38,060 nucleotides of DNA, from the NCBI GenBank assembly GCA_038245795.1, contig JBBRSC010000001.1:1-38060 (forward strand), read 5' to 3'. The translations under genes and the position numbers were made by a program. Numbering within the stretch: position 1 is the stretch's first letter; each line of letters opens with the position of its first letter. Of the stretch, positions 12,268 through 32,201 are shown one piece after another. This DNA is from Acidimicrobiales bacterium. GTDB taxonomy: Bacteria; Actinomycetota; Acidimicrobiia; Acidimicrobiales; Microtrichaceae. A model generated the notes under the pieces. That model did no database searches and was not told the DNA's origin. It was given only the letters and a program-made list of their open reading frames with translations.

Positions 12268-12320
12268 CGGACCATCATCGGCCCGTTGTGTTGCCGCCGC
12301 GTGAACAGTGCCGCGTTTAC

Positions 12321-12350
12321 CTGACAGTTTGTTGAAGTTGGGCGTAACTT
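12321..12350 (+). promoter_or_regulatory. Candidate leaderless promoter of the Mo-hydroxylase operon, including motif copy C
   Basis: CTGACA-N18-TAACTT, then 7 nt to GTG 12358. ACAGTTTGTTGAA (12324-12336) sits in the -35/spacer. Confidence 0.45.
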
Positions 12351-12357
12351 CGCGCCT

Positions 12358-13191
12358 GTGAAGCCACCCCCCTTCGCCTACTGCGACCCCGAGACCGTCG
12401 CCGACGTGTGCGACTTGCTGACCGAATGGGTCGACGACGCTGCGCTGCTGGCGGGGGGGCAGAGCCTCATCCCGTTGCTCAACCTGCGACTCGCCCGCCC
12501 CGGCCTGGTGATCGATCTCGGCCGGGTCGCCGGCCTCGACACGATTGAGCACCTCGCCACGGCACCCAACCACGCGGTCGTGCGATGTGGCGCTGGCGTC
12601 GGCGTCACTGCGTTGGCCACAGCGCATCCGGGCGCAGGAGTGGCCGAAGCCATCCACTGGATCGGCCATCCCCAGATCCGTGCTCGCACCACCGTCGGCG
12701 GCACCATCGCCCACGCCGACTCTGCCGCCGAACTCCCCGCCGTTTTGATGGCACTCGACGGTTCAGTCACTCTCCGCTCCGCCACATCGGAGCGGACCGT
12801 GATGGCGCAGGACTGGTTCGACGGGCCCTTTTCCACAACACGCGAGCCCGAGGAATTCATCGTGTCAGTCGATGTGCCGGTGCCCGATGGACCATCGTGG
12901 TGGGGGGAGGTGGCACGACGCCGCGGCGACTTCGCGTTGGTCGGAATGTTCGTGGCCCGCGATCGCGACACGTGGCGCGTTGCCCTCTCGGGCGTGGGAC
13001 CCACACCGGTCCGGGCATCCGGATGTGAGGGCGCGTTGGCGGGCGGCACGCTCGACGAGGCTTGCGCTGCCTTGGACCTCGATCTGGACCCGCCCGACGA
13101 TCTGCACGCCGGATCGAACCACCGTCGGTCGATTGCCCGTCAGTTGCTCCGCCGAGCGATGAGCGAACTCACCCCGGCGGTCGCGGCATGA
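12358..13191 (+). CDS. Mo-hydroxylase FAD-binding (medium, CoxM/XdhB-like) subunit
   Basis: 277 aa. AGGQSLIPLLNLRLARP FAD-binding block. First gene of the overlapping three-subunit set. Confidence 0.8.
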   Translation: MKPPPFAYCDPETVADVCDLLTEWVDDAALLAGGQSLIPLLNLRLARPGLVIDLGRVAGLDTIEHLATAPNHAVVRCGAGVGVTALATAHPGAGVAEAIHWIGHPQIRARTTVGGTIAHADSAAELPAVLMALDGSVTLRSATSERTVMAQDWFDGPFSTTREPEEFIVSVDVPVPDGPSWWGEVARRRGDFALVGMFVARDRDTWRVALSGVGPTPVRASGCEGALAGGTLDEACAALDLDLDPPDDLHAGSNHRRSIARQLLRRAMSELTPAVAA

Positions 13192-13700
13192 CGGCCATCA
13201 CCCCGGCGACCGATACCCGCGACACGACGTTCGTCCTCAATGGCACCGAGACCACGTTGAGGGTTCGACCGCGGACCCTGCTCAGCGACGCGCTCCGACA
13301 CGATGCCAGAGTTCACGGAACCCACGTCGGATGCGAACAGGGCGCATGCGGCGCCTGCACCGTGATCGTCGACGATGTGGCCCGTCGATCGTGTCTGACC
13401 CTGACCCCGCAGGTCCACGGGCGCATTGTCGAAACCATCGAGTCGGTGGCTGGGACCGTGGGCCTGGATCCCATCCAGCAGGCCATCCACGACGCCCACG
13501 GCCTGCAGTGCGGATTCTGCACGCCGGGCATCGTCATGTCGCTCGTTGCCGCGCGCCGAGCCGGGGCGGATCGCACGATCGCCGTCGACGAAGTGCTCGA
13601 CGGTCATCTCTGTCGATGCACCGGCTACATCAATTTGCGCGCCGCCATCGAGCTTGCGTGGAACGAACTGGAACCCAATTCCCTGGAGCCATCGTCGTGA
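13188..13700 (+). CDS. Mo-hydroxylase [2Fe-2S] (small, CoxS/XdhC-type ferredoxin) subunit
   Basis: ATGA overlap. Two cluster motifs, CEQGACGACTV and QCGFCTPG...CRCTGY. Confidence 0.85.
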   Translation: MTAITPATDTRDTTFVLNGTETTLRVRPRTLLSDALRHDARVHGTHVGCEQGACGACTVIVDDVARRSCLTLTPQVHGRIVETIESVAGTVGLDPIQQAIHDAHGLQCGFCTPGIVMSLVAARRAGADRTIAVDEVLDGHLCRCTGYINLRAAIELAWNELEPNSLEPSS

Positions 13701-16063
13701 CACTGCTGGACCCGACGCATTCGGTGACCCGTCATGTCGGTGCACGCCACGAGCGACTCGAGGATCGCCCATTTCTTGTGGGCGACTCCCGCTACAGCGA
13801 CGACATTGAACTCCCGGGTCTCCTGCACGCCGCCATCATCCGGAGCCCGAGCCCGCACGGCATCGTCCGTTCCGTCGACACCAGCGAGTTGACCGTTCCC
13901 GTCGACTTGGTGCTCGGACCCGACGAGATCGCCGCAACCAGCAACCCATGTCCGATCCACTGGATCCTGCCCGAGCAGTGGCAGACCGAACGACCTCTGT
14001 ACGACGGACGTGTCCGCTTCGTGGGTGACCCCATCGGTGTCGTGGTGGCGGCTGACCGGTATCTCGCGGAGGACGCGCTCGACGAGATCTTCGTCGACAT
14101 CGAGGAGCTCCCGCCGGTGGTGGGAATCGATGCGGCGCTGGCTGACATGACGTTGCTCTACCCCGACCGGGGCACCAACGTCATGGCCCAATGGATGGCC
14201 GGAGATGATGCCGTGCACACCGACGCTGTGTTCACCGCCGCTGAGTCCTCCCTCTCGATTCCGCTACGAATCGGCCGCGTGGCCGGGGTGCCGATGGAGA
14301 TTCGAGCCATCGTCGTCGACCCCGGTCGACCTGGGCGCGACGGCCGCCCCGAGAAGCTCACCATCTGGACCTCCACACAGGCCCCGCATGCCGTCCGTGA
14401 CGCCGTGGCCGAAGTGTGTCGGATCCCACAGCACCGCATCCGGGTCATCGGGCCCGACGTCGGCGGCGGGTTCGGGGTCAAGGACCACGCCTATGAGGAC
14501 GAGTTGATGGTGGTGCTGGCAGCGCTGAAGCTGGGCCGGCCAGTGAAGTGGATCGAGGACCGATGGGAGTCGCTCACCACCACCACCCAGGCTCGCGATG
14601 AGCAGTACACCATCGACATCGCCTACGACCGTGACGGCACCCTTCGCGGGATCCGCCTCGACGCCGTACGCGATGCGGGCGCCTACTTCTCGATCTTCGG
14701 CGCCGGTCCGCTGTTCGCCATGACCGGCACGCTCGGCGGCCCGTACCGGTGGGACGCGGTGTCATCGCATGCCCGCGCCGTGGCATCAACTACCTGTCCC
14801 AATCACAGCTACCGAGGATTCGGCCAGACGCAGGCCACCTTCGTCCGGGAATTGGCCGTCGACGCAGTAGCGGCCGAGCTCGGGATGGACCCGATCGAGC
14901 TGCGACTCAAGAACTGCATCACCCCCGACGAACAGCCGTACCAATTGCGTACCGGACCGATGAAATACGACGACGGCGACTACCCGACGTCGCTCCGGAT
15001 GGCCCGCGCAATGGCTGACGCGTGGCCACCGGTGCCCGACGATGGCCGCCGCTGGGGAACCGCCACGTCGATCTATGTGCAACAGGCTGGCGTTGGGCCA
15101 TCGCAGGGCAACCCTCACGTCGGACTCCAGATCGGCTCCTGGGAATCAACGACGTTGCGCATGGAACGCGACGGCACCGTCCGGGCTTATGTCGGCGTGT
15201 CGTCGCATGGACAAGGCCACGCCACCACGTTCGCCCAACTCATCGCTGATCGATTGGGATGCGAACCGGAACAGGTCGAGGTGATCCATTCCGATACCGA
15301 CGTGACCCCCTACTCCGCCTACGGCACGGCGGCGTCGCGTTCCATCGCGGTCGGCGGTGGCTCGGCGGTACTGGCGGCAGAACAGTTGGCGGCGAGGTTG
15401 TGCGCCATTGCCGCTGAAATCCTCGAGGCGTCGCCCGACGACATCGTGCTCGACTCGGGTACCGCGTCGGTTGTGGGAACACCAGCTCGATCGCTCGACC
15501 TCGCCGAGGTCGCCAATCGAGCATGGCAGGGCTGGGCGCTCCCCGCGGGCTACGACGCCGGACTGGTCGAGCATGCCGTGTACGAGCCGCCCGAGTTCAC
15601 GTGGAGCTACGCCACGCATAGCTGTCGGGTGGCCGTGGACCCCGAGACCGGCTTGGTCGAAATCGACCGGTACGCCGTCGTGATGGACTGCGGCACTGTC
15701 GTCAATCCCACGATCGTCGAGGGCCAAATCCACGGCGGCGTCGCCCAAGGCCTCGGCCCCGCGTTGTGCGAGGAAGTTGTGGTCGACGAAACCGGCCAGC
15801 CTCGTACAACCACGTTGCTCGACTATCTCGTCCCCACCAGTTCGCTGATGCCGAACATCGAGATCGCCTTCCAGGTGACACCGTCGCCTCATACCCCCGG
15901 CGGCATGAAAGGCATGGGCGAAGGTGGCACGAACGGCGGCTTCAGTTGTGTCGTGAACGCCGTGCGCGCCGCGCTTCCGGAAGCCGCACACCGACTCACG
16001 CAGACCCCATTCACCCCGGCGCGCGTGTGGAGCGCGCTCCATCCCGACCAGGAGACACCATGA
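13697..16063 (+). CDS. Mo-hydroxylase molybdopterin-binding (large) subunit
   Basis: GTGA overlap with the small-subunit stop. [12 protein letters not shown] and the catalytic-Glu block [10 protein letters not shown] saw no CODH-type VAYRCSFR loop, so it is more XDH/aldehyde-oxidase-like than CO dehydrogenase. Confidence 0.85.
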
Positions 16064-17265
16064 CGATCTCAGAGATGATCCCAACCAACATCACCACTGC
16101 CCTCATTGGTGGCCGGGTCCTCGACCCCGCCAACGGACTCGATGTGATCGGTGATGTCGTCACCACCGATGGGCTCATCGTCGCTGTCGGTCCCGACGCT
16201 GCGCTGGCCTACCCAGACGCCGAGCGGATCGACTGCTCCGGTCTGGTGGTCACCCCCGGGCTGATCGACCTGCACGTCCACATCTATCCCGGGCTCGGCA
16301 ACTTCTGCGTCGGTCCAGATCAGGCCGGCGTCGAACGCGGGGTACCGATCGTGGTCGACGGTGGCACATCGGGCACCGCCACCATGCAGATCGCGCTCGA
16401 CTGGATCGATGCCGCCAAGCCGAAGACCCGCGTTCTGAACTTCATGGATCCGAACTCGCTCTACCTCGCGACCCACGACTTCATCTGCCACAAATTGGAG
16501 ATCGCCAACGATGTTCGCAACCTCGATCTCGAGGGCGCGTCGGCGATGATCGAGCGTCATGCCGATCGCATCGTGGGGTTCAAGGTCCGCGCGTGCCACA
16601 CAGGGGACCCCGAGACATCGCCGTTCCTTGAAGGCGCCAAGTCGATTGCGGGCAATCTGCCGATCATGGTGCACCTCGGACGCTTTCCGCACACGGCCTC
16701 GATCACCACGGACTCACTGCTCGATGCATTGCGCCCCGGCGACATCATCACTCACGCCTTCCGCGGCGCGTCGGGTGCGCTGGCCCGCCCCGAGCGTCTC
16801 CCGACCAGCCACTTCCGCGCCGCCGCCGACCGGGGTGTGCGGCTCGACGTGGGCCACTCGGCCACCGACTTCCGGTTCCGTGATGCACGCGAGATCATCG
16901 ACGCTGGCTACCCGCCGGACACCATCTCGACGGACATGAACCGCTTCAATATCGACCATCCAGTGATTTCGTTGGCCGAAACCATGTCAAAGATCCTCGC
17001 TCTGGGTGTGTCGCTGTCCGATGTGATCGCCATGGCCACCATCAACTCGGCGACCTCGATCCATCGCGAGAACGAGTTGGGCACGCTGTCCATCGGGCGA
17101 GCCGCTGAGGTGTCCGTGCTTCGGATCGAGGAGGGGCCAGCCTCGCTGACCGACGGATACGAGACAGTCCAGGCGAACGAGCGCCTCGTGCCCGTGGGTT
17201 GTCTCCGTGCCGGCGAATGGATTGCGGCGACGGCGGGGCTGCAGCCGGCCCTCGCCGCGGCCTGA
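16060..17265 (+). CDS. Amidohydrolase/deacetylase-family metallohydrolase (dihydroorotase-like, COG3964-type)
   Basis: ATGA overlap. TPGLIDLHVHIYPG metal block, then HLGRFPH, ITHAFRG and LDVGHS. Confidence 0.7.
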   Translation: MTISEMIPTNITTALIGGRVLDPANGLDVIGDVVTTDGLIVAVGPDAALAYPDAERIDCSGLVVTPGLIDLHVHIYPGLGNFCVGPDQAGVERGVPIVVDGGTSGTATMQIALDWIDAAKPKTRVLNFMDPNSLYLATHDFICHKLEIANDVRNLDLEGASAMIERHADRIVGFKVRACHTGDPETSPFLEGAKSIAGNLPIMVHLGRFPHTASITTDSLLDALRPGDIITHAFRGASGALARPERLPTSHFRAAADRGVRLDVGHSATDFRFRDAREIIDAGYPPDTISTDMNRFNIDHPVISLAETMSKILALGVSLSDVIAMATINSATSIHRENELGTLSIGRAAEVSVLRIEEGPASLTDGYETVQANERLVPVGCLRAGEWIAATAGLQPALAAA

Positions 17266-17298
17266 CCGCCCGGCCGACCCGAGGCGAGCATCGACGAC

Positions 17299-18321
17299 AT
17301 GAACGCGCTCGGCCAGGTGACGGTTGCGGTTCCGCACGACGAGCGGCTCAGACCGATCGTGCGCGCGCTGCGGGGAACGGCACCAGTTGTCGGGCGTTCG
17401 CTGGCTGAGCTCCGCAGCGAGCTGATCTCGCACCACGCCTCCGATGTCGAACGACTCCAACTCGATGGGTGGACGATCGAGACCATCGAGCCGGTAACGA
17501 CCATCGAGACAGCAGCGGATGGGAATTCCGTCGGAGCGGTGCGGGTGCCTTCGCTGATGACGGCGAAACGTTCGGTTCCAATTCCTCCAATACCTCGGCC
17601 CGTCGGCACGGTCATTGGCCTTCACGGCGGCGGGTACGTCGTGTGCTCCGCGCTCACTCACATTGCTCGCTTCGTACGGATGGTCCCGGCCGGGTGGGAT
17701 GTCGTCGTGCCGGAGTATCGATTGGCGCCAGAACATCCGTGTCCGTGCGCCATCGACGATGCGGTGGCAACCATCCGCTCCGTGCGCTCACGCACCCCAC
17801 CCGACCACCGAATCGTGCTCGTCGGCGACTCGGCCGGAGCCGGGCTGGTGCTCGCCACGTTGCAGGCGCTGGTCCGCAATCCGACGGCATCGGTCGACGC
17901 TGCGGTGTGTATCTCGCCGTGGGTCGATCTGACGTGTTCGTTCCCGTCGCACAGCACGCTCCTCGACGCCGATCCCTTCGCACACCTCGACGACCTGCCC
18001 ACCTACGCTGCCGCCTATGCCGGGACGCTCCCCCTCGAGGATGCACGGGTATCGCCCCTCAACGGCGAGATGCGTGGGCTGCCACCGGTGCTCATTCAGG
18101 TGGGCTCCGACGAAATTCTGCTCGATGACGCCCGCTCGTTGGCCGCCGCCATCCACGCGGCTGGCGGAGACGTGCGACTCGAGGAGTGGGCGAAGATGTT
18201 CCATACCTGGCACGGACACTTCGGGTCGCTGACGGGCGCAGATCTCGCCTGCGATGCGATTGTCCGGTTCATCGATGCAGCCAGTGAACGTCCAGCCCAC
18301 GAACCAATCGAGGAACCATGA
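17299..18321 (+). CDS. Alpha/beta hydrolase, hormone-sensitive-lipase-like esterase
   Basis: Oxyanion HGGGY, nucleophile elbow GDSAGAG and a C-terminal His region (MFHTWHGH). Confidence 0.75.
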   Translation: MNALGQVTVAVPHDERLRPIVRALRGTAPVVGRSLAELRSELISHHASDVERLQLDGWTIETIEPVTTIETAADGNSVGAVRVPSLMTAKRSVPIPPIPRPVGTVIGLHGGGYVVCSALTHIARFVRMVPAGWDVVVPEYRLAPEHPCPCAIDDAVATIRSVRSRTPPDHRIVLVGDSAGAGLVLATLQALVRNPTASVDAAVCISPWVDLTCSFPSHSTLLDADPFAHLDDLPTYAAAYAGTLPLEDARVSPLNGEMRGLPPVLIQVGSDEILLDDARSLAAAIHAAGGDVRLEEWAKMFHTWHGHFGSLTGADLACDAIVRFIDAASERPAHEPIEEP

Positions 18322-19721
18322 CCGACCCCTCCATGCCAGCTGACCCCATCGTGCACGATCTCGTCCTGGCTGGTGCCCGAACGCTTGTCACCATGGACGC
18401 CGAACGACGGGAGATCGTTGGGGGGTGGATTGCAGTCGACGGTGGTGTCGTCACCGCGATTGGTGGGCCCGAAGACGAACCGGCGGCCCGGAGAACGGTG
18501 CGGGTTGACGGCTGCCTCGTCACGCCGGGGCTGGTGAACACGCACCACCACATCTACCAGAACCTCACGAGATCGTTCCCGCCAGCAACCACGTCGAATC
18601 TCTTCGGATGGTTGACGACGCTGTATCCGATCTGGGCGAACCTCGACGAAGAGTCCGCCTACCTGTCGGCGTGGATCGGCTTCGCTGAACTGGCGCTCGG
18701 CGGGTGCACGACCACCATGGACCATCTCTATGTCCATCCCCACAACGGTGGGGACCTGATCACCGCCGAGATCACGGCGGCGAAGGAACTCGGTATGAGG
18801 TTCCACGCGACACGCGGGTCGATGAGCCGGTCCAAGAAGGACGGCGGCCTGCCTCCGGATGAGGTCGTGCAGGATGACGACACGATCCTCGCCGACTCCG
18901 AGCGTCTGGTGGGCATGCATCACGATCGCTCTGATCACGCCATGGTGCAGGTTGCGCTGGCCCCGTGTTCGCCGTTCTCGGTGACCCCCGGGTTGATGAC
19001 CTCAACCGCCGAGTTGGCGGAGCGCCTCGATGTTCGGCTGCACACTCACTTGGCGGAGGATGTCGATGAGGACGCCTACTGCCTCGAGGTGTACGGCTGT
19101 CGACCACTCGAGTACTTCGAGGATGTTGGTTGGGGAACGAATCGTTCGTGGGTCGCGCACTGCGTGTACCCGAACCATGAGGAGATCCAGAAGATGGCGG
19201 CGTGGGGCACCGGCGTGGCGCACTGCCCCAGCTCCAATCAGATGATCGGCGCGGGGCTGGCGCCGGTTCGCGAGTATCGAGACGCCGGCGTGTCAGTCGG
19301 GCTCGGGTGCGATGGTTCGTCGTCCACAGATTCGGCGTCGCTGTGGATGGAGACCCGCAACGCGCTGCTGCTGGGCCGCTTGCGCGGTGGACCCGAGGCC
19401 ATGCAGGCCAGGGAGGCGCTGGAGATGGCAACCCTGGGTGGGGCGGATTGTCTCGGTCGGGGTGGCACCCTCGGGGTGCTCACACCAGGATCGGCGGCCG
19501 ACATCGTGGTCTGGCCGCTGGAGGGCGTGCAGTATGCGGGCGCTTGGTCGGATCCGGTCGAGGCGCTACTGAGATGTGGACCGAACGCTGCGCGTCACAC
19601 GATCATTGCGGGTCGCTTCGTGGTCGAAGATGGTCGTCTCGTGGACCAGCGGGTTCCGGAGATGCTGGTTCGACACGAGGCTGTCGCCCGCCGCTGGCAA
19701 GGCCTCGCAGCCCGCCCCTGA
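18318..19721 (+). CDS. 8-oxoguanine deaminase-like amidohydrolase
   Basis: ATGA overlap. TPGLVNTHHHIYQNLTR...LFGWLTTLYPIW...GGCTTTMDHLY, LHTHLAEDVDE, VAHCVY and LGCDGSSSTD match my memory of 8-oxoguanine deaminase blocks. Confidence 0.75.
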   Translation: MTDPSMPADPIVHDLVLAGARTLVTMDAERREIVGGWIAVDGGVVTAIGGPEDEPAARRTVRVDGCLVTPGLVNTHHHIYQNLTRSFPPATTSNLFGWLTTLYPIWANLDEESAYLSAWIGFAELALGGCTTTMDHLYVHPHNGGDLITAEITAAKELGMRFHATRGSMSRSKKDGGLPPDEVVQDDDTILADSERLVGMHHDRSDHAMVQVALAPCSPFSVTPGLMTSTAELAERLDVRLHTHLAEDVDEDAYCLEVYGCRPLEYFEDVGWGTNRSWVAHCVYPNHEEIQKMAAWGTGVAHCPSSNQMIGAGLAPVREYRDAGVSVGLGCDGSSSTDSASLWMETRNALLLGRLRGGPEAMQAREALEMATLGGADCLGRGGTLGVLTPGSAADIVVWPLEGVQYAGAWSDPVEALLRCGPNAARHTIIAGRFVVEDGRLVDQRVPEMLVRHEAVARRWQGLAARP

Positions 19722-19743
19722 CCAAGAACCCTCGTTCTGGGTC
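19720..19743. terminator. Hairpin spanning both stop codons of convergent genes
   Basis: GACCaAGAAC-cctc-GTTCTgGGTC. This gives 9 bp with one internal mismatch and overlaps TGA 19719-19721 and the minus-strand stop at 19742-19744. Confidence 0.35.
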
Positions 19744-20758
19744 AGCGCTGCACAGCGTCGAGCCGATCACCGATGTGGCCAGTGGAGTCGGCCGCGATTT
19801 GGGTTCGCCCACCGACGAGCTTGTTCATGAGGTGATCCAGCGCACGCACCGGCTCGTAGCGGGCCGGATTGTCGCCGGAGCAACAGGTCGGAAGACACTC
19901 CACACGAGCATCCCAGTTGCCGTCGTGGAAAAACGCGTAGGACCGCCGCAACGCGGGCCCGACGATTGCGTCCGGCGGCGGGACCACTCGGTGCACCGTC
20001 GATCGCCAGCGGTCGTTCGTCCACTGCGCCATCAGGTCCCCGATGTTGACCACATAGGCGCCGGGTTCAGGCACCACATCTACCCAGTCATGATCGGGAC
20101 CGATGATCTGCAATCCCGGGACCGAATCCGCTAACAGCACGGTGATGATCCCGTAGTCGGTATGCGCACCCATACGCTGTTGACCCGGTTCCGGCGCCGG
20201 CGCGCCCTCGGCCCGGCGATACCAGTTACAACGCAGCGTGTCGGTCGAATGAGTGGTGAAAGACTCGAAGAAGTCAGCGTCGAGTCCCAATCCGACGGCG
20301 CACAACGCCGTGAGTCGGTGCGCCAACGCTGTCACTTCGGCGAAGTACGTCATGCCGTCGCGGCGGAGTTCGGGGCACTCGGTGGGCCACACGTTGTCCG
20401 CAAAGATCCGGTGTCGCTCGGCGACGATGGCCGGGTCGGTTTCATCGAAGTCTTCCGGGCCGAAATTGAAGGCCTCGAAGAGATCAGGCGGAGCTTCCAC
20501 GCCCAACGAGTACGCCAACGATTCGGCGCCGATGGCTGAATACCCGTTGTTCACATCGGGCGACGGGGGTGGGTAGGACAGCTTCGTTGCCAGCGGTAAG
20601 CCGAAGAAGGCATCGACGGCCACCCGAAGTGCGACGATCACGTCGGCGTCGACGCCATGGTTGACCACTTGAAAGAAGCCGAGGCTCGAGGCTGCGGCAT
20701 CGATCTGCACGGGCGCGCCCGCATCTGCGAGATCGATGACGGGAACCGTGAATGCCAC
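19742..20758 (-). CDS. 2OG-Fe(II) oxygenase, isopenicillin-N-synthase-like
   Basis: N-terminal DIOX_N-like VPVIDL...GFFQVVNHGV. Facial triad HTD (RMGAHTDYG) plus WRSTVHRVV, and RRSYAFF (R-x-S). GTG 20758 lies 4 nt after the upstream stop. Alternative ATGs at 20788 and 20794 overlap the upstream gene. Confidence 0.75.
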   Translation of the reverse strand: MAFTVPVIDLADAGAPVQIDAAASSLGFFQVVNHGVDADVIVALRVAVDAFFGLPLATKLSYPPPSPDVNNGYSAIGAESLAYSLGVEAPPDLFEAFNFGPEDFDETDPAIVAERHRIFADNVWPTECPELRRDGMTYFAEVTALAHRLTALCAVGLGLDADFFESFTTHSTDTLRCNWYRRAEGAPAPEPGQQRMGAHTDYGIITVLLADSVPGLQIIGPDHDWVDVVPEPGAYVVNIGDLMAQWTNDRWRSTVHRVVPPPDAIVGPALRRSYAFFHDGNWDARVECLPTCCSGDNPARYEPVRALDHLMNKLVGGRTQIAADSTGHIGDRLDAVQR

Positions 20759-20762
20759 AGCG

Positions 20763-21470
20763 CTATCCCAACATCGGCGACGCGTCATCAACATCTGCGA
20801 TGCCGAGTCGCGCCATCCGCCGGTTGTAGGCCACACGCCCGGCCTGTTCGAGTTCGAACGTCCGATCGACCCGTGCCAGAACGGCCGCCCGATCATCGGC
20901 GGTGACGCAGTAACGTTTGATGAGGCGACGGCCCAACTTCATGTGGAACTGCTCGTCGGGGATGATCCGGTCGAAGGCCTTCTGGACATCCTCCGGCAGA
21001 CGCGGTCGGATCTGGACAAAGGCCTGACACGCGCCGAGCTCGCCGGTCAGGTTGTGCGCTGCGACGCGCTCGATGGTGGTGTCGCCGCTTGGGTACCACT
21101 CATCGATCCACTCCTCCCACTCCGGTTCGGGCGTCCAGTTGTCGAGCGATGTCACGCCGCGACGAGCCAACGCTCGCATGCAGTACTCGTAGTGCAACGC
21201 CTCGTCCTCGACCTGCTGAGCAAGCAGCACGAGCGCGTCGGGTTCCGGAGTCTTGACCAGCCAACCACCGATGAACTGACATGCACGCAGCTCGTAGTAC
21301 GCCTGGAACGACAACCACTCCACGAGTTCGTGCTCCGAGAACGGCCGGTTGAAGAAGTTGGCAGCCTCGGGATCTTCGATGGCGGCGCGTCGGGCCTCGA
21401 TGTGATCGATCAACTCAGACCAGTAGTCGGGCCCGTCCGGTTCGATGAGCTCGGTATCGAGGAGAGTCAT
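20763..21470 (-). CDS. Ferritin-like diiron-carboxylate protein (putative oxygenase/oxidase)
   Basis: 235 aa from ATG 21470, which forms an ATGA overlap. The ligand pattern is duplicated: E60...E90-A-L-H93 and E144...E173-Q-F-H176, with 30- and 29-residue spacing. This is the canonical E-X(29-30)-E-X-X-H x2 four-helix-bundle signature. Confidence 0.65.
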   Translation of the reverse strand: MTLLDTELIEPDGPDYWSELIDHIEARRAAIEDPEAANFFNRPFSEHELVEWLSFQAYYELRACQFIGGWLVKTPEPDALVLLAQQVEDEALHYEYCMRALARRGVTSLDNWTPEPEWEEWIDEWYPSGDTTIERVAAHNLTGELGACQAFVQIRPRLPEDVQKAFDRIIPDEQFHMKLGRRLIKRYCVTADDRAAVLARVDRTFELEQAGRVAYNRRMARLGIADVDDASPMLG

Positions 21471-22312
21471 GGGGTTCCGATCTGTTGGTCGATCGGGCCG
21501 AACCCGATCGCTGAAGTATCCGACGTGACATAGCTCGTGTCGGGTCGGGCGGCATCCGTCGTCCATCCCCAGATGCGCCACAGATGTCGGGCGGTGTCCT
21601 CGTAGGGATCACGGCCGTGAAACAGGCGCGAGTTGTCACCGATGAGGATCTCGCCAGCGAACAGATGGAATCGGGGCAGGCGCGCTTCGAGATCAACCAG
21701 CCGTTCCGCGAACCTGCCGACCATCACACGGGTGTGCTCCGGATCAGCATCGTCGGGCAGCGGTTCGTTGCGAATGGATCGCACCCACACGTTGCGTCCG
21801 GTCTCGATCACTGAGCAGATCGGCCCCATCGAGATGACCTTGCCAGGTTCCGTGCGATCGAGCGGAACGGTCACGAGAAAATCAGCAAGTTCTCGATCGG
21901 CATCGTCACCGTCGGAGAGACCCGCCAGCCAACGATCCATGTCCACGAGGAACGAGTCGCCACCGGGAACATCGCGCACGCATCCCAGGGCCAGGACATC
22001 AGGTGCTCCTTCAGCCAGGGCGAAGCCATCGGAATGCAGCGGCGTCCGCAGGAGGTGACCCTCGGCATCGAGGTCGGGGCGATCTTTCCCACCAGCGGCA
22101 CGCACTTCGACGGCGTCGCCGATGTGAACGAGGCGATCAGCGAACACGGCGGTGAGGACACCGACGATGCCGGGTGCGGTGTCACCGTCGCCGATCCACA
22201 CGACAGCGCCCTCGCGCTCGACGAGTCTCCTCGCCGCCGCCGGATCATCAGTTCGTTCCGGTACGACCCCGACACCGGTCGGGTCCAGGAATCCCGTCGA
22301 TCGAACACTCAT
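21467..22312 (-). CDS. TauD/TfdA-family Fe(II)/2OG dioxygenase-like protein
   Basis: ATG 22312 forms an ATGA overlap with the upstream amidohydrolase stop. PLHSDG (H-x-D), distal His in GDNSRLFHGRDPY, and a downstream Arg (ARHLWR). Confidence 0.65.
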   Translation of the reverse strand: MSVRSTGFLDPTGVGVVPERTDDPAAARRLVEREGAVVWIGDGDTAPGIVGVLTAVFADRLVHIGDAVEVRAAGGKDRPDLDAEGHLLRTPLHSDGFALAEGAPDVLALGCVRDVPGGDSFLVDMDRWLAGLSDGDDADRELADFLVTVPLDRTEPGKVISMGPICSVIETGRNVWVRSIRNEPLPDDADPEHTRVMVGRFAERLVDLEARLPRFHLFAGEILIGDNSRLFHGRDPYEDTARHLWRIWGWTTDAARPDTSYVTSDTSAIGFGPIDQQIGTP

Positions 22313-23694
22313 GCGCGCTCCTCGAGGACGGCCGTACGCCGCTCGAACAATTCTTCCGCAGCCGCCTGACCGTTGGTCATCACGGACGATTCGTCGACCG
22401 ACAACACGCGTCCACCTTCGACCAGGAGCCGTCCGTCGACCCATACTGACGCCACGTCGGATCCGGACGCGGTGAACACCAGATGCGCCGCGATGTTCTG
22501 ATCATGATCGAGAAACGTCGGGACGAACTGGACCTTGCGAAGATCGACCATCACAACGTCGGCCTGCTTCCCTGCCTCCAGCGAGCCCGTTACTTCATCG
22601 AGGCCGAGCGCTGCGGCCCCCTCGATCGTCGCCATGGTGAGGACATCCCACGGATCGCCAAGGGTGGCATCAAGTGTCGAGACTTTCTGGAGCAGCGACG
22701 CAAACTTCATCTCCTCGAAGAGGTCGAGATTGTTGTTCTCCTTCTCGCCGTCGCTCCCCAACCCCAACGAGATTCCGGCGGCCCGCATGTCCCGGACGCG
22801 AGCCGGACCGGAGGCGAGCTTCATGTTGGAGCACGGGCAATGCACCGCCGACGTGCCGGTCTGGGCCATGAGCTCGATCTCCCGATCATCGAGCCAGACG
22901 CAGTGCGCCACCACGGTGCGGTCCGACAGGATCCCTCGGTTGAAGAACTCCTCGATCGGGCGGCGACCGAATCGCTTCAACGATTCCTGGACTTCCCAGA
23001 TCGACTCGGAGCTGTGCGTATGGAGCCCGGTGTCGTACTCCTCAGCGAGCGCCATGGCGTCTCGGAAACACTTCGGCGTGCAATACAGCAGGTGCTCCAA
23101 CCCCACCCAGGTTCGGACTCGACCATTCGAAGCGGTCCGGTGCGACTTCAGGAGCGCAAGGTTCGAGTCAAGCGTTTCGAAGTAGTCGTACCCCTCCTCA
23201 TCAGCAACGTACGGGACCAGCGTGGCGCGGATCCCGACGGCCTCGGCGGCTGCGGCCGACCCCTCCATGAAGCGCCACATGTCCATCACCGACGTGTTTC
23301 CGAAACGCAGATTCTCTGTATAGGCAACCATGCTGGCGGCCGCCGCGATCTCCGGCGTCATCGCACGATGCGCAGGATCGACATAGGCCTCGAGCCAGTC
23401 GAACAGCGCCATGGACTCGGCCGTGCCGCGCAGCAATCCGGAATGCATGTGGCAGTTGTGCAGGCCCGGGAGCACGGCGTGGCCCGTGGCGTCGACAACG
23501 TCTGCCCCGACAGCGAGCGGGTGCGCGTCGATCTCCTCGACGGTCCCGACAGCGACAATTCGCTCGCCCAGGATCAGAACTGATCCACAAGGAATCAGCC
23601 GATTCCGTTGCGACGAGCCGCCAGCCATTGCAAGCACGGCACCCCCCCGGATCAGGAGCGCGGCGGTGTCAATGGCGGCTGCTTCAGACTGCAC
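22309..23694 (-). CDS. Amidohydrolase-superfamily deaminase/chlorohydrolase (MtaD/TRZ-ATZ-like)
   Basis: GTG 23694. LPGLHNCHMHSGLLRG, LHTHSSESIWE, VAHCVWL and LGSDGEKENNNLDLFEEMK. Confidence 0.75.
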   Translation of the reverse strand: MQSEAAAIDTAALLIRGGAVLAMAGGSSQRNRLIPCGSVLILGERIVAVGTVEEIDAHPLAVGADVVDATGHAVLPGLHNCHMHSGLLRGTAESMALFDWLEAYVDPAHRAMTPEIAAAASMVAYTENLRFGNTSVMDMWRFMEGSAAAAEAVGIRATLVPYVADEEGYDYFETLDSNLALLKSHRTASNGRVRTWVGLEHLLYCTPKCFRDAMALAEEYDTGLHTHSSESIWEVQESLKRFGRRPIEEFFNRGILSDRTVVAHCVWLDDREIELMAQTGTSAVHCPCSNMKLASGPARVRDMRAAGISLGLGSDGEKENNNLDLFEEMKFASLLQKVSTLDATLGDPWDVLTMATIEGAAALGLDEVTGSLEAGKQADVVMVDLRKVQFVPTFLDHDQNIAAHLVFTASGSDVASVWVDGRLLVEGGRVLSVDESSVMTNGQAAAEELFERRTAVLEERA

Positions 23695-23700
23695 CGCTCC

Positions 23701-23741
23701 AATCTCGTGGCCACCGGCGTCCGCGTCAACAGTTTGTCAAC
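23701..23741 (-). promoter_or_regulatory. Divergent promoter core with motif copy D
   Basis: The minus strand reads GTTGACAAACTGTTGACG-N17-GAGATT-N6-GTG(23694). The plus strand reads GTCAACAGTTTGTCAAC (23725-23741), a direct GTCAAC repeat at 11-bp phase. Confidence 0.4.
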
Positions 23742-23841
23742 GCGCTTCACACAGGGTTCACGAACCGCACAGCGCCACACTCGTCCTTTGTGTGCCGGAA
23801 CTCACCCGTGATCCGGCCGCCAAGTGAGGGAATATGGAGCA

Positions 23842-26800
23842 ATGGCACCGAAACTCGGGATCGTGATGACGCGCCGCGTCCGGGGGCTCGGAATTGCCGC
23901 GTTCGCAACGCTGTCCGTCGGGGCCACTGGTTCCGCCATTGCCATCCGACTCGGTGGCTCCGTGGTCGATCTGCTCCTTGACGGCCGCGACGCCGTTGCC
24001 CTGGCCGTGATCACCACGTTGCTGGCTGTCTCAGCACCGCTCTTCAACACCGTGTCCATGCTGTTCACCACCCAGCTTGCGACCAGCGTCGCCGTGGGCT
24101 TGCGCCAACGACTCGTGACCCATGCGTTGGCTCTGCCGACGTCGTTCTTCACCGATCGCAGCGTCGGCGAGATCACCAACCGCATCTCCACCGACGTCGA
24201 CACCGTCGCCGATGGCATGGTGGAGCAGGGCCAATCCGTGCTGTGGGGCCTCATTGGTGGTGTTGTGGCATGGATCGTTGCGTGGACCGTGAACCCCTGG
24301 CTGGCGGTGGCATTCCTGCCGGTGTGCGCGTTGCTGGCCGTCGTTGCGGCCCGCCTGGGACGACCAGCCGCCGAGGCGTCAGAGGAGATGGAGCAGCTCT
24401 GGTCCGAAGCAGCCGGCACGGCTGAGGAAGCGTTCGACGGGCGATCTGATCTCCGTCAGACGCTCGGCCGGGGGCTCATCATGCGCCGATGGGCGGAACA
24501 CACTGCGGCCTTGTGGGCCCAGGGAAGCATCAATATCGCCAGTCGCCGACGGTTGTCGGTATCCACCGTGACGATTCTTCGCGGCTTCCAGTTCGGCGTG
24601 GTGGTGGTGGGTTCAGTTGCAGCAATCAATGGACGGGTGACGGCTGGGTCGGTCTGGGTTGCGTTCGGTTTGGTTCGCATGTTCTCCAGCCGCATCGAGG
24701 ACGTCATCTCGAACCTGCCCCGACTCTCGGAGCTCGTTGCAGCCATCGTTCGAGTCCGCGATCTCCTGGATGAGGACCCCGAGCCGGACACCACGGTGAC
24801 CGCGCAACCCAACGAGGTCCGCTGGGCCGGACCCGTCGATCTCTGCTTCAACGGGGTCACATTCAGCTATCCCGACGACCCGACGGCCGTGCTGCACGAG
24901 GTGAAGCTTGATGTCCCTGGCGGCACGACCGCTGCGGTCGTCGGACGGACTGGATCCGGAAAATCGACGCTCGCCCGACTGGTCTCGCGCACGGCCCTCC
25001 CCGAACCCGGAACGGTCTTTCTCGACGGCGTCGATGTGTGCGCCATCCCCGTTCACGAACTCCGTCGCCACGTGAGCGTGATCACCCAACGAGTCGAGCT
25101 GATCCGCGCCACGGTGCGTGACAACGTGTCGTTGTTCGATCCGTCCATCGACGATCGCCAGGTCATCGCCGCGTTCGAAGAACTCGGCCTCGGACCGTGG
25201 ATCGACTCGCTCCCTGCGGGTATCGACACCGTCATTGCAGGGGATGGTGCCGGCGACCATGACGACATCGCCTTGTCGCAGGGCGAAGCGCAACTGGTGT
25301 CGTTCGCCCGGCTCCTGGTGCGCAATCCGTCGGTGGTGATCTTGGATGAGGCGACCGCGAAACTGGATCCCGCCACCGAGGAACTGGCACGCAACGCCAC
25401 CACTCGGATGCTTCGGGGTCGCACCGCCATCGTGATTGCGCACCGGTTGGTGACCATCGCGGACGCCGACCTGATCGTCGTCATGGACCATGGCGTGGTC
25501 GCCGAATCGGGGACGGCTGCGTCGTTGCTGGAACAGCCGGTTTCGATGTTCAGAGTGCTCGTCGAGGCCGCCGGCGGGGACGGCGCCCTGATCACACGCT
25601 CGCAACGCGAACCCTCAACCGCGCCGGCAGGCTCTGGCTCGATTCGCCGAACCAACACCTCACGCGATCGACGCGCTCCAGCTCTCACTCTCGACGAGGG
25701 TGCCGACAGCGTCATTGCAGACGTCGAGCTCGGGTCAGCGGAAGCCGACGATCCTCGGCCAGCGGACGTCCATCGCACGACCTTCCCGTTGGTCTCGACC
25801 ACGCTGGGGCTCCTGCGGCGACATCGACGGTGGAGCGCTCCGGGGCTCACCGGCTGGTACCTGTGGTTTCTCTCTCCAGCCATCGCCGCCTGGACATGGC
25901 AGCACCTTCTCGAGGAGCTCCAACCCGGCGGTTCGATCGTCGTGCCGCTCGTCGTCCTGGGCGCGTCCGTCGTCATCGCGACCATCGGGCTGTGCCTCGG
26001 CCACACGTACTTCTCAAGATGGTGGCTCCTCACTGAAACCACGATGCGGTCGAACCTCATCGCCGCACAACTCCATCCGACCGACCGTTCGACGGGTCGC
26101 GATCGAGTGGCCGCCGGCGACGCAGTGTCTCGTCTGTGGGACGCCGACAGTGTCATCGTCTACACCGATCGCTTCGTCGATGTTTTCGGGTCGATGCTCT
26201 TTATCGCTGCCGCGACCGCTGTCAGCGACACGTGGTCGACACTCGGATGGTTGCTCCTGCCGATGGTCGTCCCAGCGTCGCTGGCATGGGCGATGCGACG
26301 ACCGATCAGTTCCGTTGCCATCGAGCACGCCGTGGTCAAGGGCATCTGGACCGGTCGGGTTGCGCAGGTCTGTGCGGCCGCGACGACCATCAAGGGGTTC
26401 GCTGCTGAGTCAGCAGTCGCCGATCACATCGCCGAGTTGACGGAACGCCGCCAGGTCTTGGCGCAACGTCAGCGCGGCCAATCATCGATCCTTCGGGGAT
26501 CGGTACTGTTCACCGCGGCGGCGGGACAACAACTGATCCTGTTGGTGGCGGCGATCGCCGTACGCAATGGCGAATGGACAACGGCATCGGTGGTCGTCGC
26601 GATTGCGGTGTCCGAGGCCATCAGCAACATGCCGTTGCCGGGCTTCGTGGCCGTGGCACTGGTCCAAGAAGCACCAGCCGTCCGAGCCAAGTTGAATCGG
26701 ATGGCGCAACTGGTTCCTCTCGGCGTCGATTTTGACCTCTCAGCACCCCCCGTCGACTTTGTGCTGCCACCGGATCGACCACAGCGCGTTCCCACACCGC

Positions 26801-27489
26801 GGCCCCAACGCTCGACACTCGATTCGTTGGAGTTGGACGATGTCGGCGTGACCTTCGACGACGGCACACCAGCTCTCTGCGGGATCACGCTGTCAGTCCG
26901 TCGCGGCGAGCTCATGGTGGTGACTGGTCCGGTCGGATCCGGTAAGACCACATTGCTCCGGGTGCTAGCGGGTCTGATTCCCATCGATCACGGCGAGATC
27001 CGTTGGAACGGCGAAGTGATCGATGATCCGTCGTTGTTCCTTCGTCCACCGAACTGCGCGTACGTATCGCAGACACCGCGTCTCGTTTCCGGCAGCGTCC
27101 AAGAGAATGTGTCGCTCGACCACGAACTCGATGTCGAGGCGGCGCTCGCACTCGCGGAGTTGACCGACGAGGTCGCTGGCTGGGGCGGCGGATCCGCTGT
27201 CGTCGGCCATCGAGGCATGCGTCTGTCAGGCGGGCAGGCACAGCGATTGGCGACGGCTCGGGCGTTGGCGACCAACTCCGAGCTGCTGGTCCTCGACGAT
27301 CTCAGCAGCGCGCTCGACCCGGTGACAGAACGGCAGGTGTGGGCCTCGCTCCGAGCGGCGGGTCACACGGTCATCGCCGCGTCGCACCAACCCGCCGCGT
27401 TCGCAGCGGCAGATCGAATTCTGTATCTCGACGGCGGCGAGCTCAGAGCGCTCGACGACTCACCCGACCGACAGACACATCAAGTCTGA
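23842..27489 (+). CDS. Fused full-length ABC exporter (TMD-NBD-TMD-NBD) with asymmetric NBDs
   Basis: NBD1 has GRTGSGKST, LSQGEAQ, VILDEATAKLD and IAHRL. NBD2 has GPVGSGKTT, LSGGQAQ, LVLDDLSSALD and ASHQ. Two six-helix-type hydrophobic blocks are present. ATG 23842 follows GAGGGA by about 10 nt; an alternative GTG is at 23824. Confidence 0.85.
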   Translation: MAPKLGIVMTRRVRGLGIAAFATLSVGATGSAIAIRLGGSVVDLLLDGRDAVALAVITTLLAVSAPLFNTVSMLFTTQLATSVAVGLRQRLVTHALALPTSFFTDRSVGEITNRISTDVDTVADGMVEQGQSVLWGLIGGVVAWIVAWTVNPWLAVAFLPVCALLAVVAARLGRPAAEASEEMEQLWSEAAGTAEEAFDGRSDLRQTLGRGLIMRRWAEHTAALWAQGSINIASRRRLSVSTVTILRGFQFGVVVVGSVAAINGRVTAGSVWVAFGLVRMFSSRIEDVISNLPRLSELVAAIVRVRDLLDEDPEPDTTVTAQPNEVRWAGPVDLCFNGVTFSYPDDPTAVLHEVKLDVPGGTTAAVVGRTGSGKSTLARLVSRTALPEPGTVFLDGVDVCAIPVHELRRHVSVITQRVELIRATVRDNVSLFDPSIDDRQVIAAFEELGLGPWIDSLPAGIDTVIAGDGAGDHDDIALSQGEAQLVSFARLLVRNPSVVILDEATAKLDPATEELARNATTRMLRGRTAIVIAHRLVTIADADLIVVMDHGVVAESGTAASLLEQPVSMFRVLVEAAGGDGALITRSQREPSTAPAGSGSIRRTNTSRDRRAPALTLDEGADSVIADVELGSAEADDPRPADVHRTTFPLVSTTLGLLRRHRRWSAPGLTGWYLWFLSPAIAAWTWQHLLEELQPGGSIVVPLVVLGASVVIATIGLCLGHTYFSRWWLLTETTMRSNLIAAQLHPTDRSTGRDRVAAGDAVSRLWDADSVIVYTDRFVDVFGSMLFIAAATAVSDTWSTLGWLLLPMVVPASLAWAMRRPISSVAIEHAVVKGIWTGRVAQVCAAATTIKGFAAESAVADHIAELTERRQVLAQRQRGQSSILRGSVLFTAAAGQQLILLVAAIAVRNGEWTTASVVVAIAVSEAISNMPLPGFVAVALVQEAPAVRAKLNRMAQLVPLGVDFDLSAPPVDFVLPPDRPQRVPTPRPQRSTLDSLELDDVGVTFDDGTPALCGITLSVRRGELMVVTGPVGSGKTTLLRVLAGLIPIDHGEIRWNGEVIDDPSLFLRPPNCAYVSQTPRLVSGSVQENVSLDHELDVEAALALAELTDEVAGWGGGSAVVGHRGMRLSGGQAQRLATARALATNSELLVLDDLSSALDPVTERQVWASLRAAGHTVIAASHQPAAFAAADRILYLDGGELRALDDSPDRQTHQV

Positions 27490-27625: not shown

Positions 27626-27964
27626 TCAGGCGTCGGCGGGTGGTGCGAAGTAGCTCGGCCGACTGACCCACGAATCGGAGACGAACATCACCCCGGGTCG
27701 TCGGACGAACAGCTCGCTCAGCGCCGCGATCACCCCGTCGGCCTGCTCGTCGGGGGTCACCGCAAAGAGCATGGTGAGTCCGTCGACATCGTTGAACAAC
27801 ATGCGTCCTTCGTGCCAGCCGTTGTGGCCCAGACCGGACACGTTCGCCAAAACGGTCAGACCCGTGACCCCTGCCGCCGTGAACAGGTCGCGGACCAGAG
27901 CGAGATCGTCGCCCCCGACCACCACGTCGATCCGGGTCATCTTGGTGAGGGAACTCCGCTTCAT
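27626..27964 (-). CDS. P-II-like (GlnB-fold) small signalling protein
   Basis: 112 aa from ATG 27964, which forms an ATGA overlap with the dabA stop. The beta-alpha-beta pattern RIDVVVGGDDLALVRDLFTAAGVTGLTVLANVSGLG...MLFAVTPDEQADGVIAALSE resembles GlnB/SbtB-type proteins. Confidence 0.6.
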   Translation of the reverse strand: MKRSSLTKMTRIDVVVGGDDLALVRDLFTAAGVTGLTVLANVSGLGHNGWHEGRMLFNDVDGLTMLFAVTPDEQADGVIAALSELFVRRPGVMFVSDSWVSRPSYFAPPADA

Positions 27965-32137: not shown

Positions 32138-32144
32138 TCGCCCT

Positions 32145-32173: not shown

Positions 32174-32201
32174 TTATTCTTCGGTAGTTGCAGTGGTCAT
32201 G

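Follow-up and report, generated by a model that had tools for sequence, protein, structure and literature searches.

What might be the role of an operon that places one amidohydrolase beside three putative non-haem-iron oxygenases, each of a different fold? The genes in question, here called T1 to T4, lie on the minus strand of a 38,060-nucleotide stretch of an Acidimicrobiales genome (Microtrichaceae; GenBank assembly GCA_038245795.1, contig JBBRSC010000001.1, positions 1 to 38,060), which was analysed whole and is referred to below as the window. An earlier note on this DNA had offered two roles: a biosynthetic tailoring cassette, or a new end-branch of the neighbouring island for heterocycle catabolism. 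We find that T1-T4 form a genuine, tightly packed single operon within an island for purine-type breakdown. Our results favour the catabolic reading over the biosynthetic one, because T3 and a metal-dependent hydrolase are the constant elements of the module and are set among deaminases and a molybdenum (Mo) hydroxylase. As far as a comparison of sequences and gene neighbourhoods can tell, T3 represents an uncharacterised, strongly conserved family of diiron-type proteins and the hub of the module across several phyla. The operon itself is, on balance, probably the O2-dependent 'upper' module of an island that degrades purine-type, aminated or alkylated N-heterocycles.

Four consecutive genes are read from the same strand between 19742 and 23694, in the order T1-T2-T3-T4:

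22309-23694, minus strand: T1, COG0402/TRZ-ATZ-type amidohydrolase, probable deaminase; 461 amino acids (aa), GTG start
21467-22312, minus strand: T2, TauD/TfdA-family Fe(II)/2-oxoglutarate (2OG) dioxygenase, a probable lineage-specific addition; 281 aa
20763-21470, minus strand: T3, putative diiron-type helical protein related to DUF455 and the ferritin-like clan; 235 aa
19742-20758, minus strand: T4, IPNS/DOXC-type Fe(II)/2OG oxygenase; 338 aa, GTG start
22309-22312, minus strand: ATGA stop/start overlap of T1 and T2
21467-21470, minus strand: ATGA stop/start overlap of T2 and T3
20759-20762, minus strand: 4-nt spacer between T3 and T4 (cgct, read as TAG-cgct-GTG), ahead of GTG 20758
23695-23823, no strand: divergent intergenic region of 129 bp between T1 and an ATP-binding cassette (ABC) exporter gene

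These open reading frames (ORFs), both overlaps and the 4-nt gap are as the earlier note had drawn them. In each frame, GC content at third codon positions (GC3, 0.69-0.79) lies far above that at second positions (GC2, 0.42-0.49), and all four ORFs are therefore coding. The GTG start of T4 is supported because its orthologues called in three related loci (L001, L002 and L044) are all exactly 338 aa long. Translational coupling of the genes, as previously proposed, agrees with this layout, but 'stoichiometric co-translation' does not follow from it: 4-nt overlaps indicate coupling rather than stoichiometry, and they are routine in this contig. A scan of 19400-24100 detected neither a sigma-70-type consensus promoter nor a terminator in the 129-bp intergenic region. 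An Rfam scan of the entire window gave zero matches, with no purine, xanthine (NMT1 motif) or 8-oxoguanine riboswitch among them. The motifs assigned earlier to T2 (H-S-D/FHGR), T3 (E60/E90xxH93/E144/E173xxH176) and T4 (H-T-D/VHRV/RRS) are all found where they had been placed. The accompanying family and fold assignments also stand, through Pfam matches above cutoff for T1, T2 and T4 and, more tentatively for T3, through weak matches to the ferritin-like clan together with the ligand pattern.

T3 itself matches no Pfam family above threshold. It shows a weak match to PaaA (E-value, E, of 0.007), and members of its family show sub-threshold matches to Rubrerythrin, DUF455, PaaA_PaaC, DUF2202 and MiaE_2, all of the ferritin-like clan. 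Rubrerythrin is matched in this manner by 8 of 22 members (best E 3e-4); DUF455 reaches 41 bits in one distant relative only, the core family staying below threshold. Profile searches of the PDB returned nothing better than E 0.04. We found 171 homologues, the best 120 of which share 64-90% identity with T3, and screening 1.84 billion cluster representatives exhaustively recovered only 86 related clusters. The full ligand set is invariant in 22 aligned sequences, and H93, E173 and H176 keep a conservation of 90% or more even in relatives as distant as 23% identity. About 80 columns of the same alignment are invariant, many of them Arg, Trp or Tyr outside the metal site. The literature yielded no description of the T3 family or of the T1-T4 gene set; likewise, neither the profile libraries nor the literature contained a characterised pathway with these genes, in agreement with the earlier note.

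An AlphaFold2 (AF2) model of T3 is all-helical (predicted local distance difference test score, pLDDT, 87.6) and would place the ligands mid-helix on segments 46-73, 77-102, 132-157 and 160-187, which would make up two helix-turn-helix pairs. The expected diiron bundle was only partly borne out by this model: the ligands do sit on four long helices, but Foldseek gave no confident structural match, with none in the PDB at E<1e-3. The top matches were haem-oxygenase-like proteins (3dde, PqqC, TenA, CADD and BesC) at template modelling (TM) scores of 0.6-0.67; CADD and BesC stood at TM 0.61-0.66 with E 6e-3 to 2e-2. PaaA/C, MiaE and R2 scored lower, with TM ~0.5-0.55 for PaaA/C and MiaE. We also weighed, and dismissed, an identity as canonical ferritin or Dps, as T3 has no Ferritin Pfam match and the locus of Frankia sp. 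QA3 carries a separate Dps-like gene. In one relative (P0123, 294 aa, 45% identical to T3) the diiron-type domain is followed by a C-terminal rubredoxin (Pfam E 2.8e-23), a rubrerythrin-like architecture, and some family members carry the JGI annotation 'rubrerythrin'. This rubredoxin fusion, with the ferredoxin gene that neighbours T3 in Frankia, argues that T3 is a redox-active diiron protein fed by external electrons, which would fit either a monooxygenase-type hydroxylase or a peroxidase.

To place T3 in a wider setting we surveyed the neighbourhoods of T3 at about 35 genomic and metagenomic loci, mostly of Microthrixaceae and other Acidimicrobiia, but also of Frankia, Acidobacteriota and one Verrucomicrobiales metagenome-assembled genome (MAG). 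Approximate partner counts were 17 for T1, 16 for w14 (a PRK09237-type metallohydrolase), 15 for w16 (an 8-oxoguanine-deaminase equivalog), 15 for the Mo hydroxylase, 12 for T4 and 4 for T2. T3 occurs in at least five conserved arrangements, involving among others xanthine dehydrogenase (XDH), a thiamine pyrophosphate (TPP) decarboxylase, an iron-containing alcohol dehydrogenase (Fe-ADH) and a dehydrogenase resembling succinate-semialdehyde dehydrogenase (SSADH):

T1-(T2)-T3-T4
T1-T3-XDH (FAD, FeS and molybdenum cofactor, Moco, subunits), in Verrucomicrobiales and two Acidimicrobiales lineages
In nine loci, a split TPP decarboxylase read divergently to T3-Fe-ADH, in most cases close to an SSADH-like dehydrogenase
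LysR divergent from w14-ferredoxin-T3, in six Frankia loci
T3 convergent with w14

The full T1-T2-T3-T4 order, with its overlaps and the convergent operon both retained, was seen only in the window and in L001, L002 and L044. Synteny thus holds in close relatives but not in wider ones. About 12 of the ~35 loci have a T4 orthologue downstream of T3, and T2 is missing from every T3 locus outside that narrow clade. The 'three successive O2-dependent steps' proposed earlier cannot be upheld, for T3 occurs with neither T2 nor T4 in most lineages. Because T2 and T4 are so patchy across T3 loci, the oxygenases look like modular add-ons rather than members of an obligatory series.

The remaining arrangements associate T3 with several kinds of enzyme. 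T3 and the XDH subunits share one operon in L003, L018 and L023. Among the Microthrixaceae, w14 adjoins T3 in L007, L009 and L010; it does so at every Frankia locus too, where the unit LysR/w14-like/4Fe-4S ferredoxin/T3 recurs in L028, L029, L031, L032, L033 and L037. In Frankia sp. QA3 (L032; NZ_CM001489.1, around 4.03-4.05 Mb) this unit is flanked on one side by 8-oxoguanine-deaminase-like and adenosine-deaminase-like genes, and on the other by genes for 5-hydroxyisourate (HIU) hydrolase, an allantoicase fused to 2-oxo-4-hydroxy-4-carboxy-5-ureidoimidazoline (OHCU) decarboxylase, an amidohydrolase and XDH; within the 20 kb covered there, no uricase gene was visible. QA3 is the only one of the ~35 loci with HIU hydrolase and OHCU decarboxylase genes near T3, and the Pfam map of the window shows neither. 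The split TPP decarboxylase with T3-Fe-ADH is found in L013, L017, L020 and L041, and also in L003, L018, L023, L025/L042/L043 and L026. This TPP enzyme resembles sulfopyruvate and phosphonopyruvate decarboxylases, below cutoffs, and none of the TPP, Fe-ADH and SSADH-like genes is present in the window. In the Verrucomicrobiales MAG (L003/L021, positions 1-10000), the region upstream of T1-T3-XDH holds a set resembling the Rieske N-demethylase components NdmA, NdmB, NdmC, NdmD and NdmE (Rieske plus VanA_C, VanA_C only, a Rieske-NAD-Fer2 reductase and a glutathione S-transferase), two adenosine-deaminase-like genes and a BPD_transp_2 ABC importer. This gene content is suggestive of the catabolism of N-methylated purines.

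T2 is the most local member of the operon. It matches Pfam TauD above the gathering cutoff (E 7.8e-11, 42.8 bits against 27) and carries H93-S-D95 and F231-H-G-R234; H93, D95, H232, R234, R242 and R246 do not vary among 16 homologues. The family is very small, with 26 homologues found. A PDB search with the single sequence gave no match; only the family profile reached gamma-butyrobetaine dioxygenase (BBOX, E 3e-9) and TmpA (E 5e-7), its best matches, and T2 scores below both equivalogs (21.7 bits against 400 for TmpA, NCBIfam E 7.5e-5; 20.6 against 414.75 for BBOX). We also considered a XanA-like xanthine hydroxylase and rejected it, since the nearest relatives are BBOX and TmpA. Identity between T2 proteins drops to 73-76% within the window/L001/L002/L044 clade, and the next homologues, at ~55% identity (one is in Dermatobacter hominis), occur as isolated genes amid unrelated neighbours. 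GC3 is lower in T2 than in T1, T3 and T4 (0.69 against 0.76-0.79), which is consistent with a more recent acquisition. In L038, which lacks T2, T1 overlaps T3 directly by 4 nt, and T3 and T4 overlap directly too. T2 was thus, most simply, inserted recently into the T1/T3 junction, because it is confined to one narrow clade, its ~55% homologues stand alone, its GC3 is low and T1 and T3 overlap directly in L038. We infer that T1-T3, possibly with T4, is the ancestral core into which T2 was recruited.

T4 belongs to the IPNS/DOXC-type 2OG oxygenases by two Pfam matches above cutoff, DIOX_N (E 8.6e-20, 72.0 bits) and 2OG-FeII_Oxy (E 4.7e-20, 72.2 bits). It contains H199-T-D201, VHRV at 255 (with H256) and RRS at 271, so that both the facial triad H199/D201/H256 and the RxS pair R270/S272 are present. 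Its closest solved relatives are thymine dioxygenase (5c3p, the fungal thymine-7-hydroxylase, T7H; E 2.4e-38) and ethylene-forming enzyme (EFE; 9ovh, E 1.9e-35). Equivalents of T7H R190, Y194, Y217, F292 and N87 are retained; that of E122 is not conserved, and Asp replaces N294. A nucleobase substrate for T4 is not proven by the retained residues, because these also occur in EFE.

T1 is probably a deaminase of the COG0402 group of amidohydrolases. It matches Pfam Amidohydro_1 with E 4.8e-57 (194.2 bits, cutoff 25). Its top NCBIfam models (5'-deoxyadenosine deaminase, N-ethylammeline chlorohydrolase and TRZ/ATZ hydrolase) all score under cutoff, and T1 reaches no named-deaminase equivalog among the 25 NCBIfam models listed, the best giving 328 bits against a cutoff of 522. 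The best PDB match is the methylthioadenosine/S-adenosylhomocysteine (MTA/SAH) deaminase Cv1032 (4f0r, E 1.8e-65), to which the metal and catalytic motifs HMH 82-84, HTHSSE 225-230, AHCV 263 and GSDG 313 align; HxH, HTHSSE, AHCV and GSDG are invariant across 17 orthologues. So is VDPAH, which occupies the position of WPTE in Cv1032. If the Glu of WPTE is a ribose-binding residue, this exchange would argue for a free base rather than a nucleoside as substrate.

The operon converges on a six-gene plus-strand operon at 12358-19721, and the stop codons of w16 and T4 are 20 nt apart. This operon and the exporter on the opposite side of T1 are made up as follows:

12358-13191, plus strand: Mo hydroxylase FAD subunit, XDH family
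13188-13700, plus strand: Mo hydroxylase 2Fe-2S subunit, XDH family
13697-16063, plus strand: Mo hydroxylase Moco subunit, XDH family; start inferred
16060-17265, plus strand: w14, PRK09237-type amidohydrolase/deacetylase-family metallohydrolase (NF006689, 384 bits against a cutoff of 371)
17299-18321, plus strand: Abhydrolase_3 esterase
18318-19721, plus strand: w16, 8-oxoguanine-deaminase equivalog (NF006055, 604.7 bits against a cutoff of 532)
23824-27489, plus strand: fused ABC exporter of 1221 aa, with ABC_membrane and two ABC_tran domains

Three 4-nt stop/start overlaps link the genes of the Mo operon, with a fourth apparent overlap, GTGA, at the inferred Moco start. The Mo hydroxylase contains CxxGxCGxC and CGFC...CRC motifs. 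By Pfam and NCBIfam it is nearest to glyceraldehyde-dehydrogenase and carbon monoxide dehydrogenase (CODH)-like models, under their cutoffs and under every XDH cutoff, and was rejected as a classical xanthine dehydrogenase. Upstream lie an adenosine deaminase gene (above cutoff), a second 8-oxoguanine-deaminase-like gene, an NMT1-type ABC importer and genes for a Rieske/VanA and a PhyH oxygenase. The window contains six amidohydrolase-superfamily genes in all (223-1515, 9754-10875, 10888-12714, 16060-17265, 18318-19721 and 22309-23694): one SsnA-like, one adenosine deaminase, two 8-oxoguanine-deaminase-like, one of PRK09237 type, and T1. At the left end, 3-3758 on the plus strand, the C-terminus of an XdhD-like (Se-dependent XDH-type) protein, the SsnA-like amidohydrolase, an F420-type luciferase-like monooxygenase (LLM) and a YgeX-type diaminopropionate ammonia-lyase follow in a row. 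The YgeX equivalog scores above cutoff; no homologues of HyuA, YgeW or YgeY were seen with these genes. A reductive urate (2,8-dioxopurine) pathway has been described, an F420/LLM variant being noted as a possibility for Chloroflexota (10.1101/2025.05.19.654654); the left end of the window looks like such a variant, here in a contig from Acidimicrobiia.

The exporter had been described as dedicated to the operon and as sharing a divergent promoter region with it, a description that the comparison does not sustain. The protein is of a generic fused type under every NCBIfam cutoff. Three or four other genes lie between it and T1 in L001 and L002. The same intervening genes stand upstream of T1 in L044, whose contig ends before the position of the exporter could be seen, and the exporter is absent from all other T3 loci surveyed. 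Further along the minus strand, at 27626-33839, genes for a P-II protein and for DabA and DabB (an inorganic-carbon pump) adjoin a fused PurK-PurE gene, an unusual pairing of CO2/bicarbonate uptake with the carboxylation step of purine synthesis. A hydantoinase/oxoprolinase A-type gene follows at 34650-36740 (minus strand), its B subunit not being found in the window, and an FTR1-family iron permease gene lies at the contig edge (36682-38058, minus strand).

Gene structure, family membership, conservation of catalytic residues, neighbourhoods and redox-partner associations, as given above, are matters of observation; for the substrates, the order of steps and the activation of O2 by T3, we infer the following scheme. 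T1 would hydrolytically strip an exocyclic amino or substituted (alkyl) amino group from a free purine-type base. T3, as a DUF455-related putative diiron protein, would take electrons from ferredoxin or rubredoxin and use O2 on the heterocycle or an early product, in a hydroxylation or oxidation. T4 (T7H/EFE-like) and T2 (BBOX/TmpA-like) may serve as accessory 2OG hydroxylases that widen the range of substrates, for example by oxidative dealkylation, and would not be obligatory consecutive steps. The products could then pass to the enzymes of the convergent operon (Mo hydroxylase, w14, esterase and 8-oxoguanine deaminase), giving urate or oxopurines, and these in turn to the XdhD/SsnA/F420-LLM/YgeX-type reductive pathway encoded at the left end of the contig.

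Several observations speak for a purine-type substrate. The nearest solved relative of T4 is a nucleobase hydroxylase, and those of T1 (MTA/SAH deaminase) deaminate adenosine analogues. w16, the adenosine deaminase and YgeX all score above cutoff, and they are accompanied by the second 8-oxoguanine-deaminase-like, the SsnA-like and the F420 LLM genes and by the XdhD-like tail. In Frankia sp. QA3, too, the T3 unit stands between an 8-oxoguanine-deaminase-like gene and those for HIU hydrolase, allantoicase-OHCU decarboxylase and XDH. A precedent for the catabolism of modified purines is provided by relatives of 8-oxoguanine deaminase that hydrolyse N2,N2-dimethylguanine (PMC13054789). The earlier suggestion of a branch of the heterocycle catabolic island fits these data. 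On the other side of the balance, the Mo hydroxylase does not qualify as a true xanthine dehydrogenase under the NCBIfam models, and support for the 'purine' label comes chiefly from the deaminases and from the pathway at the left end. The T3 model lacks a confident structural neighbour, its best matches being haem-oxygenase-like. The TPP decarboxylase, Fe-ADH and SSADH-like partners of T3 in nine loci point to a 3-substituted pyruvate or aldehyde intermediate, which is not obviously purine, and the Acidobacteriota and several Frankia T3 loci have no purine genes nearby. Finally, proteins of the Verrucomicrobiales MAG island (L003) are unusually similar to those of other phyla (compared with L042/L043 and others: 89% identity for the TPP N-like subunit, against L042, 84% for Fe-ADH and ~65-70% for T3), which points to horizontal transfer or to a binning error.

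How do other explanations compare with the catabolic module proposed here? One that we hold to be rather unlikely, though ahead of the others that follow, makes T3 a non-canonical ferredoxin-dependent urate or oxopurine hydroxylase that would stand in for uricase or HpxO, the oxidised ring then being opened by the adjacent w14 or T1. It would account for the QA3 locus, where XDH, HIU hydrolase, the OHCU decarboxylase-allantoicase fusion and an amidohydrolase surround LysR/w14/Fer4/T3 without a uricase in 20 kb, for the T3 operons with XDH subunits in three lineages, and for the frequent proximity of T3 to 8-oxoguanine deaminase, a urate-producing enzyme; moreover, downstream uricolytic enzymes are more widespread than known urate oxidases (PMC4562309). 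Yet the HIU hydrolase/OHCU signature is limited to that single locus, where a uricase might sit just beyond the 20-kb view, the reductive urate route in the window requires no oxidase, and the partnership of T3 with TPP decarboxylase and Fe-ADH is left unexplained. An unlikely reading is that T3 is not a pathway enzyme at all but a rubrerythrin-like peroxidase acting against H2O2 from neighbouring oxidases and oxygenases. The Rubrerythrin matches and JGI annotations, the rubredoxin domain of P0123 and the adjacent ferredoxin in Frankia speak for this reading. However, T3 is translationally coupled between enzymes of catabolic operons in several independent arrangements, has ~80 invariant residues extending beyond the metal site, with many Arg, Trp and Tyr, possesses three extra helices and never reaches the Rubrerythrin threshold.

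T2, apparently inserted directly ahead of T3 and overlapping the gene on either side, could in the window clade form with it an oxidative cleavage pair like PhnY*/PhnZ or TmpA/TmpB, T2 hydroxylating a carbon beside a heteroatom and T3 cleaving the product. BBOX and TmpA are indeed the closest solved relatives of the T2 family, and the partners of T3 at other loci (phosphono/sulfopyruvate-decarboxylase-like enzyme, Fe-ADH and aldehyde dehydrogenase) are typical of C2 phosphonate or sulfonate chemistry. We give this idea a small probability, slightly below that of a peroxidase: T3 is not an HD-domain protein, almost all lineages that carry it lack T2, T2 itself shows weak similarities (E 3e-9), and the Pfam-annotated loci contain no phosphoenolpyruvate mutase or other phosphonate or sulfonate marker. 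It is about as improbable, or a shade more so, that the module serves to sanitise damaged or modified bases (8-oxoguanine, oxoadenines, alkylated bases) rather than nutrition. An 8-oxoguanine-deaminase equivalog is at hand, 2OG oxygenases can dealkylate bases, and the relatives of T1 reportedly include oxoadenine deaminases; but uptake ABC transporters, a Mo hydroxylase and a downstream degradative route share the island, which is large and apparently horizontally mobile, as is typical of nutritional catabolism. Least likely of all is the natural-product tailoring cassette, with a product exported by the adjacent ABC exporter. Three oxygenases and a hydrolase beside a divergent exporter could be taken that way, and TauD-family and IPNS-like enzymes are common in biosynthesis. 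Against this, the Pfam map of ~30 genes shows no core biosynthetic gene in 38 kb (no NRPS, PKS, terpene, RiPP, nucleoside-antibiotic or further scaffold gene), the partners that are conserved belong to catabolism (deaminases, a Mo hydroxylase and ABC systems for uptake), and the generic exporter is not conserved with the operon.

Beyond the catabolic module itself lies a bolder proposal, which we rate as a long shot but as less improbable than any of these alternatives: the T3 family would be a new class of ferredoxin- or rubredoxin-dependent diiron oxygenase acting on oxopurines or ring-opened products, possibly a urate/oxopurine hydroxylase, and would mark a new aerobic branch of purine or modified-purine degradation spread horizontally among Acidimicrobiia, Frankia, Verrucomicrobiota and Acidobacteriota. 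Should T3 prove to be a diiron oxygenase that works in heterocycle breakdown, both an enzyme family and a step in purine or modified-base degradation would be new. This field still holds surprises, such as the 2,8-dioxopurine pathway in 2025 and the N2,N2-dimethylguanine hydrolases in 2026, and such a function might help to explain the 8-oxoguanine-deaminase-like genes in catabolic clusters and the replacement of uricase in some lineages. The T1-T4 operon is a local elaboration of lesser general interest, and its value lies in the T3 family which, being small, very conserved and present in cultured Frankia strains, is experimentally tractable.

Comparison with known systems helps to delimit what is novel. 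The left end of the window shares the XdhD-like tail, an SsnA-like enzyme and YgeX with the reductive urate pathway XdhD-YgfK-SsnA-HyuA-YgeW/YgeY-YgeX, an F420 LLM replacing YgfK; the T1-T4 operon is not part of that pathway, and no SsnA-like genes lie near T3 in other loci. Relative to the COG0402 deaminases (MTA/SAH, 5'-deoxyadenosine, guanine, oxoadenine and 8-oxoguanine deaminases, N2,N2-dimethylguanine hydrolase and TRZ/ATZ enzymes), T1 keeps every metal and catalytic motif and differs by its sub-cutoff equivalog scores and by VDPAH in place of the WPTE of Cv1032. T4 shares with thymine-7-hydroxylase (NcT7H) and EFE the triad, the RxS 2OG site and the equivalents of R190, Y194, Y217, F292 and N87; EFE has the same conserved aromatic residues, which therefore do not prove a nucleobase substrate. 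T4 departs from thymine-7-hydroxylase at the E122 and N294 positions and in being a bacterial protein in a catabolic context. T2 has the TauD-family fold, the HxD...H triad and the conserved Arg of gamma-butyrobetaine dioxygenase, TmpA and PhnY*, but is ~100 residues shorter and lacks the N-terminal domain. As in TmpA/TmpB and PhnY*/PhnZ, a TauD-family gene directly precedes that of a (putative) diiron protein; T3, however, is not an HD-domain enzyme.

For T3, two groups of proteins invite comparison. Haem-oxygenase-like proteins, which include the diiron enzymes CADD and BesC and the non-metal TenA and PqqC, provide its best Foldseek matches and have the same seven-helix size; two of them, TenA and PqqC, bind substrates that are heteroaromatic. 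No similarity to them was detected at the sequence level, however, and all Foldseek E-values exceed 1e-3. Haem-oxygenase-like diiron oxidases (HDOs) have a site of three His and three carboxylates that is not arranged as two ExxH motifs, and the predicted T3 set of four Glu and two His in two ExxH motifs is unlike this pattern. With the ferritin-like diiron oxygenases and oxidases (PaaA/PaaC, MiaE, AurF/VlmB-type enzymes, rubrerythrin and DUF455), T3 shares the arrangement E...ExxH...E...ExxH on two predicted helix pairs at a spacing of ~30 residues, weak profile matches and ferredoxin or rubredoxin partners. It differs from them in lying under every model threshold, in its TM of ~0.5-0.55 to PaaA/C and MiaE, and in a context of amidohydrolases and Mo hydroxylase unlike that of any characterised member. 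Among diiron helical-bundle enzymes, T3 would thus appear to bring both a new family and a new context, tied to heterocycle-catabolic hydrolases and Mo hydroxylases.

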